In this document: positions 2,792 to 53,860 of the stretch, in pieces
How the letters are laid out: each line of letters starts with the position of its first letter
Numbering within the stretch: the stretch's first letter is position 1
From: a phage
Reading direction: 5' to 3' (one strand)
DNA: 64,000 nt
Sequence record: NC_135728.1
The notes under the pieces: model-generated
The model's database searches: none
Told to the model about the DNA's origin: nothing
Seen by the model: the letters and a program-made list of their open reading frames with translations, nothing else
Translations under genes and position numbers: made by a program

Positions 2792-3709
2792 ATGATGAAG
2801 TATTTTAATGCAGATGACCTAGTAGACAAAGGTCTTGTAACCAGTCGGTATTATCCAGATCTTGGATTAAAGATCTATAAATATGCCAGAAAAGTATTCT
2901 ACAACAATCTGTGGCATTTGTCTCCGCGTTTACTGGAGTGCCGAGGTATTGTTGTTGGCAATGAGGGGAATGTTGTGGCATGGCCTTTCACAAAAGTATT
3001 CAACTTAGGAGAAAACTCCACCAACCTACCGGACAGTAAACTTGTTACTGCGGTAGAGAAAAAGAACGGATTCCTCGGTGTGGTATCATCTCATAAAGGT
3101 GAACTATTGTTCTCAACAACCGGGTCTCTTGATTCCCCATATTGTAACCTCGCAAAAGAAACCATCAGGGAGCAATGTGGTAATTTAGATCTTATCAAGA
3201 AGGTTATGGGCAATGAAAACATGACATTCATGTTTGAAATTTGCCACCCTTCAGATCCGCATATTGTTCAGGAAGATCATGGCGCATATTTGATAGGTTG
3301 CAGATATAATGATTCTGGAATAATGCTACCAGAAGCAGCTTTAGATGGGATTGCCAAATACCTTGGTGCAAAACGTCCTCACACTGTGCGTGAAATTCCG
3401 TTCAGCTATGCAAAAGAATTAGCTGCAGAAACAAGAGGTGAAGGGTATATGATTCGTAAGCCTTACTACCCTTATGATCTGCAGCTGAAGATCAAGTCTC
3501 CATACTATCTGGCACGGAAGGCAGTAATGAGGGGTAAAGCTTGGAAGATTTGGGATGATGATATCTTTAAACGTGTTGACGAAGAGTTTTACGGTATGGT
3601 AAAATTTATTCGTAGCAACTATACAGAAGATGTGTGGAATTGCTTATTAGAGCAGGAGCGTCGTGAGATACTGGACTACTATTTCCACAACGAGGACTAT
3701 ATGCAATGA
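2792..3709 (+). CDS. ATP-dependent RNA ligase-like nucleotidyltransferase (Rnl1/Trl1-type KxNG motif)
   Basis: Motif I-like EKKNGFLGVV (cf. Trl1 KANG, T4 Rnl1 KEDG); GAGGAA RBS before ATG 2792; divergent from the kinase/phosphatase genes. Confidence 0.55.
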   Translation: MMKYFNADDLVDKGLVTSRYYPDLGLKIYKYARKVFYNNLWHLSPRLLECRGIVVGNEGNVVAWPFTKVFNLGENSTNLPDSKLVTAVEKKNGFLGVVSSHKGELLFSTTGSLDSPYCNLAKETIREQCGNLDLIKKVMGNENMTFMFEICHPSDPHIVQEDHGAYLIGCRYNDSGIMLPEAALDGIAKYLGAKRPHTVREIPFSYAKELAAETRGEGYMIRKPYYPYDLQLKIKSPYYLARKAVMRGKAWKIWDDDIFKRVDEEFYGMVKFIRSNYTEDVWNCLLEQERREILDYYFHNEDYMQ

Positions 3710-38787: not shown

Positions 38788-39087
38788 ATGTCTACAAAGG
38801 CGGCTAAATACTCCTATATGCCATCAACCTCTGCAGAGGTAGACTTTAGTTTCGATGTATTTCCACTGTTTGAGGTGGTTCTGGCATACCCTACAATACT
38901 ATCTACTCCTGAATCACTTGTGCCTGTTAAGTTGCAGAACGCTATGCATTCCATGCACTACAACAATAAATGTAGGCACAGATGGTGTCAGGACGAGGAA
39001 AAAGATTTGGATAGTTTGAGGGATTTTGACAGTCACCTTTTGACACCTTTCAGCTACTCCAACCTTGATAAGCCCTCATGGGTATAG
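38788..39087 (+). CDS. hypothetical protein
   Basis: ATG after GAGGTGGA. Confidence 0.45.
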   Translation: MSTKAAKYSYMPSTSAEVDFSFDVFPLFEVVLAYPTILSTPESLVPVKLQNAMHSMHYNNKCRHRWCQDEEKDLDSLRDFDSHLLTPFSYSNLDKPSWV

Positions 39088-39111
39088 CAAAATATCAAAT
39101 TTAAGACACCT

Positions 39112-39141
39112 AGGACGCTCTGTGGCGTCCTTTTCTTTATC
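39112..39141 (+). terminator. rho-independent terminator
   Basis: AGGACGC-TCTGTG-GCGTCCT followed by TTTTCTTTATC. Confidence 0.6.
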
Positions 39142-39300
39142 TGGTGCACGATTGCATACCTTGGGTAGTTAATCTCATTACAGAGCGTTTAAGAGCTTCC
39201 TACAAACAACTCCATATTTCGAGCGTAGCGAGAACGCACGTCCGTTTTGACCCAAATCACCATACGCTCGGATTTTAACCAAACCCTCGCGGCGTTTCTG

Positions 39301-39329
39301 TTGACACATTGCCGCTCCAGTGATAGTAT
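39301..39329 (+). promoter_or_regulatory. sigma70-like promoter TTGACA-17-TAGTAT
   Basis: Consensus -35, good -10. Confidence 0.5.
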
Positions 39330-39354
39330 CCACACATAGTCTGGAGAATATGGA

Positions 39355-39660
39355 GTGCACAATGAAAACATTGTCCGAAGTTTTGGTGGTGATCCTGATG
39401 ATCATTACGTCCATAGCGGCTGTTGCCGGAATACTCACGGGTGGAACATGATAAACACACATGCATCTGAAGAGACATCCAAAGGAGTGACTATATGTCC
39501 CTTGACTGAGCCAGTGCAAGAGGAAAACTTCGATTCTGAAGATTCTCCATCTTTGCTCCAGGTAGATCCTGAGGCTGATGACCTAACGTGGGAAGACATC
39601 GTAGATATCTGGTTCTCTATTATGCCTGAGCACGAAGAGTTCAGGGGTGGTAGACTATGA
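39355..39660 (+). CDS. hypothetical acidic protein (start uncertain: GTG 39355 or ATG 39448)
   Basis: GGAGAA RBS before GTG; alternative ATG 39448 overlaps the stop of the micro-ORF below. Confidence 0.4.
   Translation: MHNENIVRSFGGDPDDHYVHSGCCRNTHGWNMINTHASEETSKGVTICPLTEPVQEENFDSEDSPSLLQVDPEADDLTWEDIVDIWFSIMPEHEEFRGGRL
39362..39451 (+). CDS. alternative hydrophobic micro-ORF, 29 aa
   Basis: GGAGTG RBS; MKTLSEVLVVILMIITSIAAVAGILTGGT; mutually exclusive with the GTG-39355 reading. Confidence 0.3.
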   Translation: MKTLSEVLVVILMIITSIAAVAGILTGGT

Positions 39661-39781
39661 AGCACCGAGCCCACACAGGTTCCTCATGCTAAAGCATGGC
39701 CTGAAGAGGCAAACGTGTATAATTCCAGCGTATTGGGACGTATAAAACCCAGTTCACACTCTCATTTCCAGAGGAGATTTC

Positions 39782-39997
39782 ATGAAGATAGAAATATTTG
39801 GTGGGGCTGACAACACTCGTGGCCTGATTTACCTTGAATTCGATGAATCATACCTGCCAGAGGTGTTAAATATGGACTCTGTTGCTGAGGCTTTGGGAGT
39901 AAGTCCTAAAGATCTCCACTCTGGTGCTGAGATTGATGGTTGGGAGGAGACCATGAACATCGATTTCAGTGAAGTAGGGGATGAACCACTGGACTGA
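39782..39997 (+). CDS. small acidic protein
   Basis: GAGGAG RBS; last rightward gene before the non-coding hub. Confidence 0.5.
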   Translation: MKIEIFGGADNTRGLIYLEFDESYLPEVLNMDSVAEALGVSPKDLHSGAEIDGWEETMNIDFSEVGDEPLD

Positions 39998-40346
39998 CAC
40001 ACAATTAGTTGCCCGGCTAAAGTGCTGGGAGCACCCATAACACATCTTTCAACTAAATTTCCTACCACCACAATCACTTACCTCCCACACATGACTGTTT
40101 GCTTGTTTAGTGAGCAGTCATGCCTTGACATTCTTGCCTATCCTGATAAAATTAAGTTCTTCTCTTTTCTTTTACCGAGTAATTCGGGTTTTCTGTTCTC
40201 TTCGGTTTGAAGGGGTATGGAGATACACCTGAGTGAACAGGGTGAACAACCGAACCATTGGCTATGGCATTAGCATGGCGAAGCGGACGGGTGACGAAAG
40301 AGGGGCCGGAGGACACCAGTCACTGCCATATGATATATGGGTGATA

Positions 40347-40865
40347 ACCTGAAGAGTCTGAATAAGTGTTTAAGTACCAGTCAGAGGAAAAGGTGAATGG
40401 TAGCCGAAGGGGGAGGGGGGTTACCTGCTTCTGTAAACATGCATCTGAAATACTACTTTAGATAACCTGAACCTGCCTTTCTGACAAATATTCCCTATTA
40501 AACTTGAATTATTTATAGAAAATACCACAACACCACTTAAGTCTTTGATTTTACACACAAATCTTACAGATATTAAACCTCTCTATTTAACATACCTGTA
40601 ACATATACTATACTCCACCTGTCTGATCAATTTCCCCAACTACATCCCCATATTTTCCCTGTCTGTACTACCCCTGCCCCGCCGGGAGTCCCGTCATATC
40701 TGGCTTTCCAGCAAATATCACACCCACAAATATCATCACCTGAAGAGGGTTTCATCCCATAATACATGCCTTACCTGAAGAGCGCTTCATATACCCCGTA
40801 AATTTTTTAATTGACCCCCTCCCCGCCGCCGGAGGGGTTGGCTTTTCCCACACAAACCTGAAGAG
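40347..40865. repeat. dispersed direct repeats of ACCTGAAGAG (4 copies)
   Basis: Copies at about 40347, 40738, 40773, 40856; ACCTGAAC variant at about 40463. Confidence 0.5.
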
Positions 40866-41425
40866 TCAGCCAGAAATATCTGAACAGCCAGTTATACCAC
40901 GATTTTGTGCTTGTCCTACAGGAGTGCTTCCCTGTCAGGAGCCGGTAGCGACTGGAGTGCTGCCAGGCGGACGAAATGGGAATACTTCTCATTCTTATAA
41001 CAATTCTCAAATATCGAGGCAGTGAGGCAAATTAATAGGTGAGGCCGTTCACACAGTGGCACAACATTTGCAACCTATCTTGTGGGATTGAATGAGAATA
41101 CCTATCATTGTGAGAACTGTTATCATTACGGGCAATTTAACATAATACCCATTATGCGCACCACTGGCGATACATACAGGGATTTATAACATGAGTTACT
41201 GTTTACGTATATAACAATTATATTTCTTACTATTTGTGTGGGATATAGTTAGCAGCCGATAGATTAGATATTGACCTGCAGACTTCCAACCGTCTAGACG
41301 TCTAAACGCCCACACAACAAGGTTTATACATACATTACTGAATGTAAACAGGGCCGCAAAAATGCTACCATACAAGATTGTAAATTTTTCATGCAGCACT
41401 TGACAAAGAGGAGAAAAACTTGTCT

Positions 41426-41505
41426 GACACTTTAGACACAATAGTGACATAATATGACACCTTTGACACACTGGACACATTAAACATAATTGACATGCCT
41501 GACTG
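41426..41505. repeat. iteron-like array of GACA(C/T) repeats phased every 9-11 bp
   Basis: Eight copies: GACAC, GACACA, GACAT, GACAC, GACACA, GACACA, GACAT, GACT. Confidence 0.6.
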
Positions 41506-41540
41506 TTTACATAGCTAACTATTTACTAAAAAATGATAAG

Positions 41541-41852
41541 CCATGCCATTCGTTTGCATGATAAAGATTAGCAAGTTAATAATCTTTCGCTGGCTATGCC
41601 AGGTGACCTTTGGTCACCCCTTCGGGTGTTTCTATGACATAATATAAAAGCAGGGCAACTATTAGCAGATCATAGTTGCCTTGCTTGTTAACACCCTTGA
41701 GACGAAGGCTTTGCCTGAGTTTATGTCATGATTAACTAAATACAAGGCAACTATGATCTGATTAATAGTTTGCAGACAAACTATCACGGGGGTGATGGTT
41801 ACTGCTTTTATATTATGTCGCGACTCCGTCGCGCCATGCCATTCGTTTGCAT
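41541..41852. repeat. nested repeat complex: 19-bp direct repeat, 18-bp inverted repeat and internal palindromes
   Basis: CCATGCCATTCGTTTGCAT at 41541 and 41834; GACATAATATAAAAGCAG (41636) inverted at 41802; GGTGACC-TTT-GGTCACC; GGCAACTAT-N9-ATAGTTGCC. Confidence 0.6.
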
Positions 41853-42477
41853 AGTTGCCTTATTGTTACGAATAAAACAATTGCATTGTTAATGATTTCT
41901 TATCTTTCTCTTAGTCATCTAATGATTCCAGTCAGTCTAGTAATGTACAGTAAACATTAGACGACTAAAGATTTCCCTGTTTATGATAACTCACCGTGAT
42001 AATTTCAGGCTGTTTACTAAAAATGTTGACACCTAAGCTGATTTATGTTATGCAGTTTACACGAATAATTATTTTATGCAGGTATTGACTATTCCGTTAT
42101 TCTATGGTTGGAATAAATACTTAGCAGACTATAGAATGGTGAGCGTACGTAAATTCTGAGATCTGGCGGCTATAGTTATACTCGATTTTTCACGTAGAAC
42201 ACGCTTTTGTGAGTGTGTAAGTGTATGACTTATAAAGATTTTTAGTTGTTGACAAGATATTGAAGATGTGCATCAGGTTAAATTTTGTGCAATAGCGGCA
42301 TTACGTGCAATTCTGAGAGAGAAAACGGGTAAAAATGGCCCTGCTACCACAAGATGAAAGATTATGCAATAGTTATTTTTATATGTATATTTGTACAGTA
42401 GGGTTAATTGCTGGCTTGTTGATTATTCCACTTGCCAGGTGGGGCCGTTTGTGGTAGGAGAAATACAGACAAAAAGA

Positions 42478-42508
42478 AAGGGGCCTTTTAAAGCCCCTGA
42501 TAGTTTAG
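42478..42508 (-). terminator. rho-independent terminator of the leftward block
   Basis: On minus strand GGGGC-loop-GCCCC followed by TTTCTTTTT, just past gene 42517-42936. Confidence 0.6.
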
Positions 42509-42516
42509 TTAAGAAA

Positions 42517-42936
42517 TTATAATGATTCGTATATTTCAAAAATCCGATTTGCCAGGTCGTTACGGTAGCGGAATTTTTCCTCACGTTTGATCATCAGATC
42601 TTTAAAGCCATATTCTTTAAGCACTTCATTAACTTTATGGCGGCATACCTTCATATTATCTTGTGCGTCACCAATAAACTTGTTGCTATGGTGCATGGCT
42701 TTAATTTCTTCTTCCAGGACCAGGGCAACTATGCGGACCGGATCAAGCTGATAGGCGGTAACATCAATGCGGCATTGTAAACGGCTTTTTACGTCTGCCA
42801 CCGGATATACTGCAACCTCTTCCCCGTCAACATTGACAATAATTAGTTTACCATCGATTTCGAATCCTTTCGCCGCCGGACCGTGACAAAAAGCGTTATC
42901 AAAGCTATATGCCGGATTATTAGATTTAATGTTCAT
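42517..42936 (-). CDS. hypothetical protein
   Basis: Track ORF; AGAGGT RBS. Confidence 0.5.
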   Translation of the reverse strand: MNIKSNNPAYSFDNAFCHGPAAKGFEIDGKLIIVNVDGEEVAVYPVADVKSRLQCRIDVTAYQLDPVRIVALVLEEEIKAMHHSNKFIGDAQDNMKVCRHKVNEVLKEYGFKDLMIKREEKFRYRNDLANRIFEIYESL

Positions 42937-43081
42937 GGTGTTTTTACCTCTTAGTTAATTTTCTTACAACTTCCCTTCAAAAAAGAATATAGCAAAACTG
43001 CCGATCCTTGTCAACCAAGGATAGCATAATTTTTATGTGATCAAGGGGCTTTATTGCCCCCTGATCGTGCAACTTGTTGTA

Positions 43082-43345
43082 TTATTTGTTACTCATCCAG
43101 TTTTCCCAGGCTGCCTGATAATCTGCCTCACTGCGGCGGATCTCTTCTTGCTCTTCAAGTCGGATCTCTTCTTCCAGGTACCCCAAGATATCGGCTTTCT
43201 TGGTCTGGCGTAACATCCAATCATCTTTTTTACGGGTAAAGATCTTATATGCTTTCTCGCAAACCTCTTTTTTGCTACCTTTTTGGACTTCAAGAACTTT
43301 GTAGGCCATGTACTGAACTAGTTTAAGCTGATCAAGACGTTTCAT
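43082..43345 (-). CDS. hypothetical protein
   Basis: Leader CCACACAAAGAGGTAAAC before ATG. Confidence 0.5.
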   Translation of the reverse strand: MKRLDQLKLVQYMAYKVLEVQKGSKKEVCEKAYKIFTRKKDDWMLRQTKKADILGYLEEEIRLEEQEEIRRSEADYQAAWENWMSNK

Positions 43346-43405
43346 GATGTTTACCTCTTTGTGTGGTTCTGATTAGTGGGCCTCCCGGCCCGTGTCATTA
43401 TCTTA

Positions 43406-43678
43406 TTACTTACGGCGGCAGAATTCAAGCGTTTTTAATTGATAATCTTCCTCAGCCTGGAGTACAACCGCCTCGATCATTTCGTTGGCATTGTTGAAGC
43501 CATACCCTTTAGCGAACTCGTCCGCACCACCTTCGTGATCATGTTCTGCGTTCATCGCTTCCACAAAATGGAATTCCAAATTGTTGAGGTAGGGGCTTGA
43601 TGTGCCGTCTTCTTTTTCGATGAGATCCCAAATAGCATTAAAACGTGATTCGACTTCTTGATTAATCCAGCTTGACAT
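43406..43678 (-). CDS. hypothetical acidic protein
   Basis: AGAGGAAAACAC before ATG. Confidence 0.5.
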   Translation of the reverse strand: MSSWINQEVESRFNAIWDLIEKEDGTSSPYLNNLEFHFVEAMNAEHDHEGGADEFAKGYGFNNANEMIEAVVLQAEEDYQLKTLEFCRRK

Positions 43679-43896
43679 AGTGTTTTCCTCTCTTCTGGTT
43701 GTTGTGTGGGCACCTTTGCCCCTTCAAGATAAATGTTACCCCACCCCCTGGCAGATGTCAACGGTTTTTATAGTTCTTATATGACAGGCAGGCCTGGTGA
43801 TTGTCTCCCCCTGTTCCCAAGTGCCGCCCGTTTAATAAGAATAGCAAAAGGGGCCGAACAAGTCAACCCCAAAATCAGTACCAAAACACTTTTTAT

Positions 43897-44208
43897 TTAT
43901 ACGGTCCGGTCATTGGCCTTTGTCCAGGACCTGGCGATCCGTTTCCCAGTCACCTGGAACGGAGACTGCATTGTGTGTAGTGAATCCAGCGTAAGGGAGG
44001 ACCGTTTACGGCGTATCTTCAGGATCGCCAATGTATTGTCCATCTCACGGCCAGGTCCTGGGCGGTATGGTGTGCCTCCAGCGTTAAGGTTGATGATCTC
44101 ATGTATTGAGATCCGGCGTTGTTTTGCTTCCGCATCTTTGAAGATAGCCAGTGGAGGCGCTATGCGTTGCCGATACCAATCTAAAACGGTTGGCGTAATA
44201 GCGATCAT
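43897..44208 (-). CDS. hypothetical protein
   Basis: AGGGGGTAAAAT before ATG. Confidence 0.5.
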   Translation of the reverse strand: MIAITPTVLDWYRQRIAPPLAIFKDAEAKQRRISIHEIINLNAGGTPYRPGPGREMDNTLAILKIRRKRSSLTLDSLHTMQSPFQVTGKRIARSWTKANDRTV

Positions 44209-52899: not shown

Positions 52900-53860
52900 T
52901 GTAAAATTATTTTTTGGGTAGAATTCTCCAGCCGCCACCCCTGCCAGGTTTGCAAGCTTTCACTCTCCCACCTGGTCAGTTAGGTCCTGCTAGGGCTGGC
53001 CCCGCCAGGTTGCAGCAGTTGACGCACTATGTTAGAAAAATTTTTTGAAAAGTGTTGACAACGGCCCCACCAGGTGGCACAATATACATATCGAAAGGAC
53101 GGCAGGCACCGGTGACGGGGGAGACAACCACCGGGGATGGGCGCTGCATAAAATGAGAACGGTTATCATTATCATTTAAAAATTTATGCAAAAAGTCCTT
53201 GCTTTCTTTGTCCTGTGTGATACTATAATAACAAGCCGGGGCAGCAGGGGCCGGGAGACAATCACCGGGCCTGCCCGTTATTCTGCAAACGAGAATGATT
53301 ATCATTCAAAATTCTAAATGAGAACTCCTCGCATTTAATAAATTTAATTAGCATGCTAATTACCATCCGTAACAATTTCCTATAAAACAGTATCCACTAA
53401 AATATTCCCATATAGAAATTTTAAAAATCCATTTCTGAAAACGAAAAATCGATTTCGTCCCCAAAAATTTCAGGTCGAGAGCCGGAACGATTTCCAGAAA
53501 ATCCGATTCAGAAAACGAAAAACAGATCGAGTACTGAGAAATTTATCGAGAAAAATTTTCAGAAAATTCAATCTTTGAAATGAAAAACAGATCGAGTACC
53601 TGGAAAGCTGCACCGCAACTTCAAGATAGTGGTTAGATTGTTACCATAGAAGGTCAAGGGTAAGTGGAGGGAGTTATAGTAGAAGGATGTGAGTATGTGC
53701 AGGAAATCTGTAATGGTGGTCTGGAATATGGTGCAAACGATAGGATGGGTGATTCAGCTTGTCGCGCCCACTCTGAAAAAATCCATTTTAGTTTTCGATC
53801 CATTTTCTGATTTTCTAAGGATTTTAAAATATCCAGCCCGGTGAAATATCAAAAGGAGGA
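52900..53860. repeat. about 1 kb ORF-poor region with several direct-repeat families
   Basis: CC..CCAGGT-type motifs; two related 80-nt units containing GGGAGACAA(C/T)CACCGGG and GAGAA(C/T)G(G/A)TTATCATT; three GAAAACGAAAAACAGATCGAGTAC-type repeats about 70 bp apart; AAATCCATTTTAG repeats. Confidence 0.55.

Follow-up and report, generated by a model that had tools for sequence, protein, structure and literature searches.

The gene-free region of a Vequintavirus genome is very probably the terminal region of its linear chromosome

A region without ORFs was reported in the genome of rV5, at 104013-106618, and was called 'non-coding' (Kropinski et al. 2013; PMC3606486). Phages EdH4 and HdK5 have terminal redundancies of 458 bp (PMC6563267). 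For Gotham, a terminal repeat of 459 bp is reported, with packaging that begins at one point in every virion, and its authors took the lack of a region of twofold coverage in other assemblies as the sign of permuted ends (PMC7471380). In KPP-1, a member of the same subfamily, a repeat of 514 bp shows twofold coverage, and PhageTerm assigned the phage T7-type packaging (PMC9862379). Phage N4 has an exact left end and several right ends; extension from staggered nicks is one route by which terminal repeats form, and the overhangs of cos sites are about 20 nt at most (PMC5557969).

The DNA analysed here is a 64-kb stretch (the window, to which positions refer unless another phage is named) of a Vequintavirus, an rV5-like E. 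coli myovirus. Two gene blocks converge in it on a gene-free hub of 2,519 bp, 39998-42516, between the stop codon of the last rightward gene (39997) and that of the last leftward gene (42517). All genes flanking the hub, including the two that border it, match PHROG families. A sequence-only reading of the window had described a hub between convergent units, which the flanking stops bear out, and had placed it at 40210-42516. The right edge stands, but the gene-free stretch begins at 39998; the later start had been chosen because of an ORF at 40022-40210. Comparison with related phages, called for by the same reading, found the homologous gap conserved in 121 genome records, with the hub as a whole 84-93% identical in relatives. 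The rV5 gap is one of these homologues, and it lies at the same locus as the repeats of HdK5, EdH4 and Gotham. The hub and its direct terminal repeat (DTR) are already known, then, for close relatives. The papers concerned (PMC3606486, PMC6563267, PMC7471380) treat gap and repeat separately and give no anatomy of the region; the promoter with its invariant block, the palindromes at the cuts, the motifs shared across genera and the repeat-flanked hairpin module are absent from them. The conserved, promoter-driven 262-nt block appears to be undescribed. From left to right, the features are:

40090-40122: perfect 8-bp inverted repeat, CATGACTG-N17-CAGTCATG, read from the sequence directly upstream of the -35 box
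40125-40152, plus strand: predicted sigma-70 promoter, TTGACA (40125-40130), 16-nt spacer, extended -10 TGaTAAAAT (40144-40152)
40159-40420, plus strand: almost invariant block, candidate ncRNA of about 262 nt, from conservation in 118 records
40423-40497: two-allele variable cassette, directly after the conserved block
40440-40870, plus strand: tract rich in C and poor in G, its GC skew reaching -0.36
40900-40965: variable stretch with two hairpin copies (40918-40935 and 40952-40966), loops AGTGCTTC and AGTGCTG
40965/40966: left cut site, ...GCTGCCA/GGCGGAC, adjoining the centre of the palindrome GCCA^GGC (40962-40968)
40966-41424: DTR homologue of 459 bp, from end-to-end alignment with the Gotham repeat_region and the start of HdK5
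41091-41130: motif inside the repeat, AATGAGAAT-N-TATCATT, then GTGAGAAC-N-TATCATT
41377-41406, minus strand: leftward promoter-like site in the right end of the repeat, TTGTCA-18-TACAAT (10/12 consensus)
41424/41425 (element 41421-41429): right cut site, ...AACTTGTC/TGACAC, inside the palindrome TGTC^TGACA
41425-41535, plus strand: short-repeat array in helical phase, (T)GACA(C/T) followed by ACTGTTTACA-type units
41540-41852: hairpin-rich module of 293 bp (41560-41832) with bracketing repeats
41853-42478: AT-rich non-coding DNA, 88-99% conserved, with near-invariant islands at ~42040-42100
42479-42498, minus strand: intrinsic terminator of the leftward block, AGGGGC-TTTAAAAG-GCCCCT followed by a T-run

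Some depositors annotate between 1 and 17 short hypothetical proteins in the hub. It is nevertheless extremely improbable that the hub encodes small or unusually initiated proteins overlooked by gene callers, as these annotated ORFs vary between records and the longest ORF of the hub is of the length expected by chance (94 aa, against 83 +/- 18 aa in shuffles of the same sequence). This longest ORF is broken in relatives, and the ORF at 40022-40210 (62 aa, GTG start) is frameshifted in six of 16. All hub ORFs tested in these 16 relatives are frameshifted or interrupted except one of 54 aa on the minus strand (40152-40316), which is intact in all 17 genomes. However, the latter starts with GTG, has no ribosome-binding site, and shows substitutions of which four of six kinds are non-synonymous and mostly radical (Gly to Cys, Pro to Leu, Pro to His); it is intact only because it lies inside the invariant block. 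The only short ATG-started ORF of that block, 18 codons from 40217, loses its start codon in three phages. Searches of PHROG and Pfam with the 94-aa and 54-aa ORFs matched no family, whereas every flanking gene has its PHROG. A protein-coding ORF should stay intact in relatives and change mostly by silent or conservative substitution; the hub ORFs do not behave in this way, hidden genes were rejected and the claim that the hub holds no credible ORF is upheld. A tRNA/tmRNA scan of the window found none. Rfam 15, run over 39000-44000 at a permissive threshold, gave a single sub-threshold match, at 42464-42532 and overlapping the terminator (score 22.5 bits, E 0.22; the threshold is 41).

The hub is very probably the terminal region of a linear virion chromosome, with 40966-41424 a T7-type DTR occurring once between concatemer units. 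The 459-bp repeat_region annotated in Gotham (1-459 and 136567-137025) aligns base for base with this segment. In five GenBank records (bov10K2, bov22_2, YN3, HdK5 and ECP2309) the first base is the homologue of 40966, and two, those of Gotham and ECP2309, finish in ...AACTTGTC, at position 41424. Homology to the relatives' repeat extends over its full length with the same edges, and the cut-site sequences are conserved among the repeat-bearing relatives. The segment is 91-97% conserved. It occurs once in the present record, as is expected of a circular or concatemer map. Read across by homology from these relatives (93-96% identity), the ends of the present phage would be fixed at the same positions.

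Across 17 Vequintavirus genomes there is no variation in the 12 nt that precede the left cut or in the palindrome where the right cut falls. The right cut is also the 3' edge of an inverted repeat, GACAA-N13-TTGTC (41402-41424). Parts of both contexts recur in other genera. The source phage (GAGTGCTGCCA/GGCGGAC), KPP-1 of the genus Mydovirus (CGGTGCTA/GACGGAC) and Mt1B1_P17 of the genus Phapecoctavirus (GAAGTGCTT/AACGCGA) have in common GTGCT followed by 1-4 nt before the left cut. All three genera have AAGAGRAGA, a purine-rich motif, 4-10 nt before the right end. The record of Mt1B1_P17 carries an identical 328 bp at both ends. Within the window, the exact AATGAGAAT is found only at 41091-41130, and AATGAGAAT...TATCATT lies also inside the terminal repeats of KPP-1 and Mt1B1_P17. 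A related inverted pair is present at 40975-40993, 10-28 bp from the left end of the repeat. The leftward promoter-like site at 41377-41406 is kept in KPP-1 in position and in both hexamers, as TTGTCA-18-TACAAA.

Assembly anomalies cluster exactly at the terminal region, which also counts for a terminus. The CM1 record has a perfect tandem duplication of 523 bp beginning at the 40966 homologue, and the I29 record a scrambled duplication of 546 bp. The left edge in CM1 is the same, but its right edge lies beyond the TGACA array, at a distance of 64 nt from 41424; some phages may lack a fixed right end, or else the CM1 record is an artefact of assembly.

This reading is built on homology to the mapped repeats and to the ends of records, on the patterns of conservation and on the absence of genes, and from these the course of events can be proposed. 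Terminase, whose gene lies outside the window by the rV5 map, would nick at two fixed sites, on the left at ...GCTGCCA/GGCGGAC and on the right at ...AACTTGTC/TGACAC, presumably by reading sequence motifs of the terminal region. Synthesis from the staggered nicks would copy the 459 bp between the sites, such that each packaged chromosome has the segment at both ends. The 968 bp of 39998-40965 would then be unique DNA of the right chromosome end and the 1,092 bp of 41425-42516 unique DNA of the left end. The repeat covers only one fifth of the gene-free stretch, and the roles given here to its flanks are proposals. The end stretches may be free of genes because they are occupied by cis-acting elements. 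Candidates are the cut palindromes, the cross-genus repeat motif, the phased array, the hairpin module, the terminator, and the predicted promoter at 40125, strong and of host type, which would drive the 262-nt segment towards the terminal repeat.

Packaging by headful from a pac site would give circularly permuted chromosomes, the hub being a pac region and a buffer between the converging units, and the 'terminal repeats' of some records being assembly overlaps. The rV5 paper does call the genome circularly permuted (PMC3606486), a 2026 paper on the Vequintavirus BpE1AUH obtained headful packaging with partial permutation from PhageTerm, and many deposited records are opened at arbitrary positions. 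We regard this alternative as very unlikely. Independent groups in Germany, Portugal, China and elsewhere arrived at the same two ends to the base, the Gotham repeat was reported with a coverage criterion and a single packaging start (PMC7471380), and in KPP-1 the twofold coverage was shown directly (PMC9862379). Furthermore, chance assembly overlaps would not yield cut contexts conserved in three genera, and the claim for rV5 was made from Sanger shotgun data at 3.6-fold coverage, a depth that cannot resolve short repeats. A cos site was rejected, as the mapped ends of relatives are 459 bp apart with the intervening segment duplicated in their records, unlike short cohesive ends. Of the three functions offered by the sequence-only reading (a replication origin, a pac or cos packaging site, or small non-coding RNAs), the packaging site comes closest to the truth and was broadly right. 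The chromosome ends of close relatives do map inside the hub, at the homologues of 40966 and 41424, but they are of the T7-type DTR kind, neither pac nor cos.

To the right of the repeat, the phased array has GACA[CT] units starting at 41426, 35, 46, 56, 65, 74 and 92, a spacing of 9-11 bp. It is hypervariable in sequence and in copy number, and rV5, Murica and typing phage 4 have 93-140 extra bp of units of this kind. The hairpin-rich module that follows is bracketed by a perfect 20-bp direct repeat, GCCATGCCATTCGTTTGCAT (41540-41559 and 41833-41852), and contains nested inverted repeats of 18 nt that are perfect. At 41654-41859 the sequence GGCAACTAT is found four times, its orientation alternating. 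As single-stranded DNA the module folds at -71.8 kcal/mol (z -10.3). It is present in 118 of 119 records, with internal hairpin cassettes present or absent between phages, and is missing in FV3, which keeps one copy of the repeat. A mobile element was considered and rejected, as the module is found at this locus only; deletion between the 20-bp repeats in FV3 is therefore the simpler reading. Beyond it, the GC content falls to 34% in 42000-42400 and to 28% in 42340-42400, compared with 42.7% for the window. TTGAC(A/T) boxes at 42026, 42086 and 42250 have no usable -10 boxes. The terminator that had been claimed for the leftward genes is in place at 42479-42498, and is annotated independently in the records of Murica, HdK5 and Gotham. 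Other details of the sequence-only reading also hold: the perfect palindromes are found as the 18-nt inverted repeats, the AT-rich tract is where it was placed, and the repeat families (ACCTGAAGAG, TGTTTAC and GGCAACTAT) are real and local.

Between the invariant block and the cut, the left flank includes variable stretches. One allele of the cassette at 40423-40497 is shared by the source phage and C7, and the other 15 genomes have another, with indels of +12, +15 and -5 nt. ACCTGAAGAG occurs in four exact copies, all on the plus strand, between 40347 and 40865, and nowhere else in the window; the first (40347-40356) is inside the block, and three further CCTGAAGAG copies are at 40738, 40773 and 40856. 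KPP-1 has a related motif, TTGACCTGAAG(A/T)GTCA, which supplies the -35 portion of sites resembling promoters and overlaps good -35/-10 pairs; as a promoter element, the four copies of ACCTGAAGAG here come without consistent -10 boxes. Six of 16 TGTTTAC matches fall in 40433-42017. A weak hairpin with a T-run at 40816-40837 was rejected as a terminator of the candidate RNA, the structure not being conserved in relatives. One of the two hairpin copies of 40900-40965 is deleted in rV5, Murica, YP6, FV3 and ev146.

The predicted promoter at 40125-40152 matches the consensus at 11 of 12 positions and has the TG extension, which would place the start of transcription at ~40159. In a metagenome contig, L027, the spacer has seven substitutions and a 2-nt insertion, and both hexamers are intact. 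The inverted repeat upstream, 40090-40122, is near-invariant in 28 genomes, with only its last base, 40122, varying (five of the 28); it is possibly an operator, or a stop signal for rightward read-through. Conservation of the block begins at the predicted start site. Homologues in 118 records are 96.8-100% identical, 85 of them at 99% or more, and the block is more conserved than the neighbouring genes. It has a CU-rich 5' end and a G5AG6 tract at 40409-40420; in the predicted fold the CU run at the 5' end is paired with the G run at the 3' end, so that a closing helix coincides with the edges of the block. A sensitive blastn search of 50,697 phage records (E up to 1) found homologues only in Vequintavirus, and 5,426 E. 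coli genomes contained none. A scan of IMG/VR gave one contig. The one metagenome scan gave five, all of them Vequintavirus, with L027 usefully divergent. No transcriptome study of a Vequintavirus was found in the literature.

Whether the block is a discrete functional ncRNA of ~262 nt, made early from a host-type promoter and with a role in trans (regulator, decoy or anti-defence RNA, for instance), is in our view an evenly balanced question. Such an RNA would concern this one sub-block and is compatible with the terminal region proposed for the hub. The promoter hexamers kept in L027 despite its scrambled spacer argue for it, as do the start of conservation at the predicted start site, its level above that of the flanking genes and the coding tests described earlier. 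The fold is better than that of shuffles on the plus strand (z -2.06) and no better on the minus strand (z -0.45). In the hairpin CCATAT[GAT]ATATGG (40326-40340) the three variable positions are all in the loop. In the predicted fold, five substitutions on one side of a pair leave it paired as G-U, a strand-specific effect. One change from C-G to U-A may be compensatory, although it depends on the register and was equalled in 13 of 500 shuffles. Against an RNA, 76 of the 85 predicted pairs never vary, three are broken in some genomes, and RNAalifold finds no compensatory pair (covariation term -0.23) in an alignment where variation is sparse. Rfam gives no match, the searches found homologues neither outside the genus nor in the E. 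coli genomes, and there is no clear terminator. Near-invariance could equally be that of a packaging or replication signal at the level of DNA. The small-RNA option of the sequence-only reading is thereby plausible for 40159-40420, on the strength of a promoter and conservation read from sequence, but it finds no known Rfam family there.

ColE1, T4 oriF/oriG and T7 origins are transcript-primed, and T7 has secondary origins near its ends. That the hub is a replication origin is possible but doubtful. In a transcript-primed version, RNA from the 40125 promoter, G-rich and ending in G5AG6, would form a persistent hybrid beside the AT-rich DNA of 40425-40640 and prime synthesis; in another, the phased repeats and GGCAACTAT sites would bind an initiator next to AT-rich DNA. 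The order of the parts (promoter, conserved G-rich segment, G-run, AT-rich strand-skewed DNA) suits the first of these. The binding-site-like phased repeats, the four inverted 9-mers, the long hairpin module and AT-rich 42000-42400 suit the second. But the array varies widely in sequence and copy number among close relatives, and FV3 dispenses with the module. The cumulative GC skew turns at ~40.2-40.4 kb, and in rV5 the skew changes at 104425-105475, within the same gap (PMC3606486). However, as the rV5 authors noted (PMC3606486), this turn coincides with the change of gene orientation; because it coincides with the switch in the direction of transcription it carries no independent information on an origin, and as an origin marker it was discarded.

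For the chromosome terminus, which we prefer as the account of the hub, our best guess, of low confidence, is that the transcript would act in cis, in the priming of replication or in transcription-dependent processing of the ends. More specifically, 40159-40420 may encode a new phage ncRNA, transcribed at once from a strong host-type promoter next to the chromosome end, which, itself or as its G5AG6 RNA-DNA hybrid, is needed in cis for the start of replication or for processing of the repeat by terminase. This is a speculative proposal and rather unlikely to be right. If true, it would parallel the way in which end processing depends on transcription in T7, here with the host polymerase, or the packaging RNA of phi29.

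The rV5-like phages are widely used for E. coli O157 typing and as therapy candidates. For annotation, the gap is not empty, as it very probably contains the chromosome ends; records are best opened at the homologue of 40966 with the repeat carried twice, and the short 'hypothetical proteins' annotated in the gap are spurious. In a phage with T7-type ends there is nothing out of the ordinary in such a hub and repeat. A 262-nt segment whose conservation over more than 100 genomes exceeds that of any neighbouring gene is unusual for non-coding phage DNA, and its invariance suggests a signal, of RNA or of DNA, that has yet to be described and is linked to replication or packaging.

One parallel in known systems is with T7 and T3, whose terminal repeats are 160 and 231 bp and arise at a concatemer junction through staggered nicks and extension synthesis. 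In T7, repeat arrays and promoters lie close to the ends, and the right end has a packaging signal nearby. The locus resembles these phages in that its repeat is short and exact, would have fixed ends and occurs once in each unit of the concatemer, and in non-coding flanks with short-repeat arrays and promoters near the ends. It differs in that the phage is a myovirus of 137 kb with promoters for the host RNA polymerase, in a repeat three times longer with no sequence similarity to T7, and in having the genes at both ends transcribed towards the ends.

KPP-1 (514 bp) and Mt1B1_P17 (328 bp) likewise have their repeat in a gene-poor gap. The gap of KPP-1 sits where genes converge, whereas the genes flanking that of Mt1B1_P17 do not converge. 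Both share the two cut contexts and the AATGAGAAT...TATCATT motif with the source phage, and in Mt1B1_P17 a neighbouring 139-aa gene is 90% identical in protein. The lengths of their repeats are different, and they lack the invariant 262-nt block. N4 is similar in having a repeat of a few hundred bp, and the CM1 record suggests a second right edge with the same left edge; however, the right end at 41424 is the same in two independent records and CM1 may be an artefact.

Phage phi29 encodes its packaging RNA at the end of its genome, and the transcript that primes the ColE1 origin is RNA II. As in phi29, ColE1 and T4, a conserved non-coding segment appears to be driven by a promoter; here it lies within ~800 bp of the genome end, points at that end, and finishes in a G-run followed by AT-rich DNA. 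It differs from all of these in sequence and has no Rfam similarity to them, so that the resemblance of this candidate RNA is positional only.

Between the last rightward gene, with its stop at 39997, and the last leftward gene, with its stop at 42517, lie 2,519 bp free of genes (39998-42516; the hub). The sequence-only reading had placed an ORF-free hub at this convergence; its absence of credible ORFs stands, and its left limit of 40210 moves to 39998. The old limit came from a 62-aa GTG-started ORF (40022-40210) that is frameshifted in six of 16 relatives. Both genes flanking the hub match PHROG families, and the two longest-surviving hub ORFs, of 94 and 54 aa, match no PHROG or Pfam family. 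The longest, at 94 aa, compares with 83 +/- 18 aa in shuffled hub sequence and is interrupted in relatives, as are all the others except the 54-aa minus-strand ORF. Few substitutions occur in this last ORF, which lies within an almost invariant block, and most of them are radical (Gly to Cys, Pro to Leu, Pro to His). The remaining features claimed for the hub are all present: a terminator of the leftward block (42479-42498), perfect palindromes (18-nt inverted repeats), an AT-rich tract (42340-42400, 28% GC) and repeat families, which are local and well above chance. After the last rightward gene, 39998-40045 holds no recognisable intrinsic terminator, just a GTGCT-GGG-AGCAC hairpin without a T-run.

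At 84-96% identity, the hub matches 121 phage records, every one from Vequintavirus, the genus of rV5-like myoviruses of ~137 kb. The homologous interval of rV5, between gp158 and gp159, is unannotated; the paper describing that phage reports skew changes at 104425-105475, sought an expected two-way terminator in the gap without finding it, and proposed no function (PMC3606486). Careful annotations (BASEL, Danish wastewater collections) leave the gap empty too, and automated ones fill it with ORFs that are inconsistent between records. Nineteen UNVERIFIED, unannotated ‘Campylobacter phage’ records (within MG065635-MG065690, e.g. MG065658.1) are 92-94% identical to the window across the hub. 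NCBI classes them as Vequintavirus; contamination or a labelling error seems to lie behind the host name.

Judged from Vequintavirus relatives, the virion DNA ends are located inside the hub, those of the window's own phage being placed by homology. A sensitive search found five records (bov10K2, bov22_2, YN3, HdK5 and ECP2309) that start at hub-query position 967, which is window position 40966. In the Gotham record a repeat_region is annotated at 1-459 and again at 136567-137025, and a four-way alignment equates it base for base with 40966-41424, with a left edge of ...GCTGCCA^GGCGGACGAAATGGG and a right edge of ...GAGAAAAACTTGTC^TGACAC (^ marks the cut). The ECP2309 record terminates in ...AACTTGTC, and terminal redundancies of 458 bp have been reported for EdH4 and HdK5 (PMC6563267). 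From the mapped repeat and the record ends, the hub of the circular map resolves into three pieces, listed here with a cassette considered below.

Features of the hub (window coordinates)
39998-40965, right-end unique DNA
40423-40497, two-allele cassette
40966-41424, terminal repeat, one copy
41425-42516, left-end unique DNA

The hub and its repeat are already published for the genus, the mechanism is of the T7 type, and the hub as a whole is ordinary and explained. In KPP-1, a Klebsiella phage of another genus in the same subfamily, the repeat measures 514 bp, shows twofold coverage and was called T7-type by PhageTerm (PMC9862379). Repeats of this kind are produced by terminase nicking at two fixed sites, the interval between which is copied by extension synthesis (PMC5557969). 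By this established mechanism, staggered nicks would fall in concatemers between 40965 and 40966 and between 41424 and 41425, and the 40966-41424 interval would then be duplicated.

Against fixed ends, two papers report permuted or headful genomes within the genus, for rV5 (called circularly permuted; PMC3606486) and for BpE1AUH (a PhageTerm headful call). Two records are irregular at the repeat. Shigella phage CM1 (MK962749.1) has a perfect 523-bp tandem duplication at 1630-2675 that starts exactly at the homologue of 40966 and ends 64 nt past the usual right edge, beyond the TGACA array; phage I29 (ON286975.1) has a 546-bp duplication at 732-1871 that includes an inverted 60-nt piece. Both probably reflect misassembly of the terminal repeat. 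Alternatively, the right end of CM1 could be variable, as reported for the right cut of N4 (PMC5557969).

For fixed ends, the cut contexts are kept across the window, KPP-1 and Escherichia phage Mt1B1_P17 (Phapecoctavirus), although overall DNA similarity is gone.

Cut contexts in three genera (^ marks the cut)
Window: left GAGTGCTGCCA^GGCGGAC; right GACAAAGAGGAGAAAAACTTGTC^
KPP-1: left CGGTGCTA^GACGGAC; right GACAAGGAGAGAGAATTGTGTT^
Mt1B1_P17: left GAAGTGCTT^AACGCGA; right TTTAAGAGAAGATGCT^

All three repeats also contain the motif AATGAGAAT...TATCATT; the single exact copy of its 9-mer in the 64-kb window lies within the repeat. These shared contexts and the shared internal motif argue that related terminases genuinely recognise the repeat edges, as opposed to the edges being accidents of assembly. 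Read directly from the sequence, the window cuts adjoin the centres of small palindromes, GCCA^GGC and TGTC^TGACA, and both lie at the 3' edge of short inverted repeats. The setting recurs as well: the KPP-1 repeat is likewise in a gene-poor gap with converging genes, and in Mt1B1_P17 the two ends share 328 identical bp, lying within ~1.9 kb that is free of genes. The 139-aa gene at 42517-42936 (minus strand) has a homologue ~90% identical in protein in Phapecoctavirus, a different subfamily, where in several records it lies ~1.2 kb from the record start, the first gene beside the genome end as in the window. Its matches also include one Pseudomonas phage and one Acinetobacter phage record. 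Within the repeat, at its right end, a promoter-like site pointing leftward (TTGTCA-18-TACAAT) is conserved in KPP-1. Elsewhere in KPP-1 (2038-2067 and 2996-3025), TTGACCTGAAG(A/T)GTCA supplies the -35 region for two good sigma-70-like promoters with 17-nt spacers and -10 boxes TATACT and TATTCT, one of which precedes a gene; related ACCTGAAGAG copies in the window are without such -10 boxes.

Units of (T)GACA(C/T) and of the ACTGTTTACA type, spaced 9-11 bp apart, form an array that begins at the right cut; its sequence and copy number vary even among close relatives, by up to +140 bp. Beyond it, a 293-bp module between copies of a perfect 20-bp direct repeat (41540-41852) forms, folded as DNA, a long hairpin of -71.8 kcal/mol (z -10.3) and contains four GGCAACTAT sites in alternating orientation. 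The module is present in 118 of 119 records; FV3, which lacks all of it and retains a single 20-bp copy, bears the signature of deletion by recombination between the repeats and shows that at least one viable phage can do without the module. Some 600 bp of conserved AT-rich DNA then lead to the leftward-gene terminator. Judging solely by where they lie and that they recur, putative protein-binding sites for packaging or end functions are the intra-repeat motif, the phased array at the right cut and the GGCAACTAT sites. Outside the hub, a motif search found AATGAGAAC and AATGATAAT near-matches clustered in alternating orientation within ~175 bp (53152-53325), which may be another repeated binding-site array.

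The anatomy of both flanks was taken from a 17-genome alignment. To the left of the repeat, 40050-40425 is 99-100% identical in all genomes, against 85-98% for adjacent genes. Directly after the invariant block, the 75-bp cassette exists in two unrelated versions, one in the window and C7 and the other in the 15 other genomes; as there are no intermediates, replacement by recombination is suggested. A C-rich, G-poor tract follows, with three further CCTGAAGAG copies and a weak hairpin that is not conserved in relatives. The variable stretch before the left cut has two hairpins with AGTGCT-containing loops, one of them often deleted, and its last 12 nt are invariant.

A replication origin may also lie in the hub, at low probability. 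The turn in skew falls where gene orientation switches.

No description of the fine anatomy was found in the searchable literature. This applies to the palindromes at the cut sites and the conservation of those sites across genera, the shared intra-repeat motif, the repeat-flanked hairpin module and, foremost, the 262-nt invariant block (40159-40420) with its promoter (40125-40152). The latter is a near-consensus host promoter (TTGACA, 16-nt spacer, TGaTAAAAT). The block is 96.8-100% identical across 118 phage records, 85 of them at 99% or more, and searches beyond the genus, of E. coli genomes and of Rfam found no relative. In the divergent metagenome contig L027, the promoter spacer has seven substitutions and a 2-nt insertion with both hexamers intact, and there are only three changes between the predicted start (~40159) and 40425, a pattern that fits a functional promoter with a transcript under selection.

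The plus strand folds better than shuffles (z -2.06), whereas the minus strand does not. In the predicted fold of 40159-40425 a CU-rich 5' end pairs with a G5AG6 tract, so that conservation begins and ends where a helix closes the fold. Variation in a hairpin at 40326-40340 is limited to the three positions of its loop, five one-sided changes retain pairing through G-U pairs, and L027 has one C-G to U-A double change. Yet 76 of the 85 predicted pairs are invariant, three are broken in some genomes, the register chosen by RNAalifold is without this compensatory pair, and 13 of 500 shuffles perform as well. As support from pairing and covariation is thin, a non-coding RNA is a plausible candidate at about even chances, and the invariance may alternatively reflect a DNA-level signal. 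Speculatively, an early transcript from the promoter at 40125 would have a cis role at the chromosome end close by, in which a G-rich hybrid serves for priming or transcription assists the processing of the end, the latter as described for T7.
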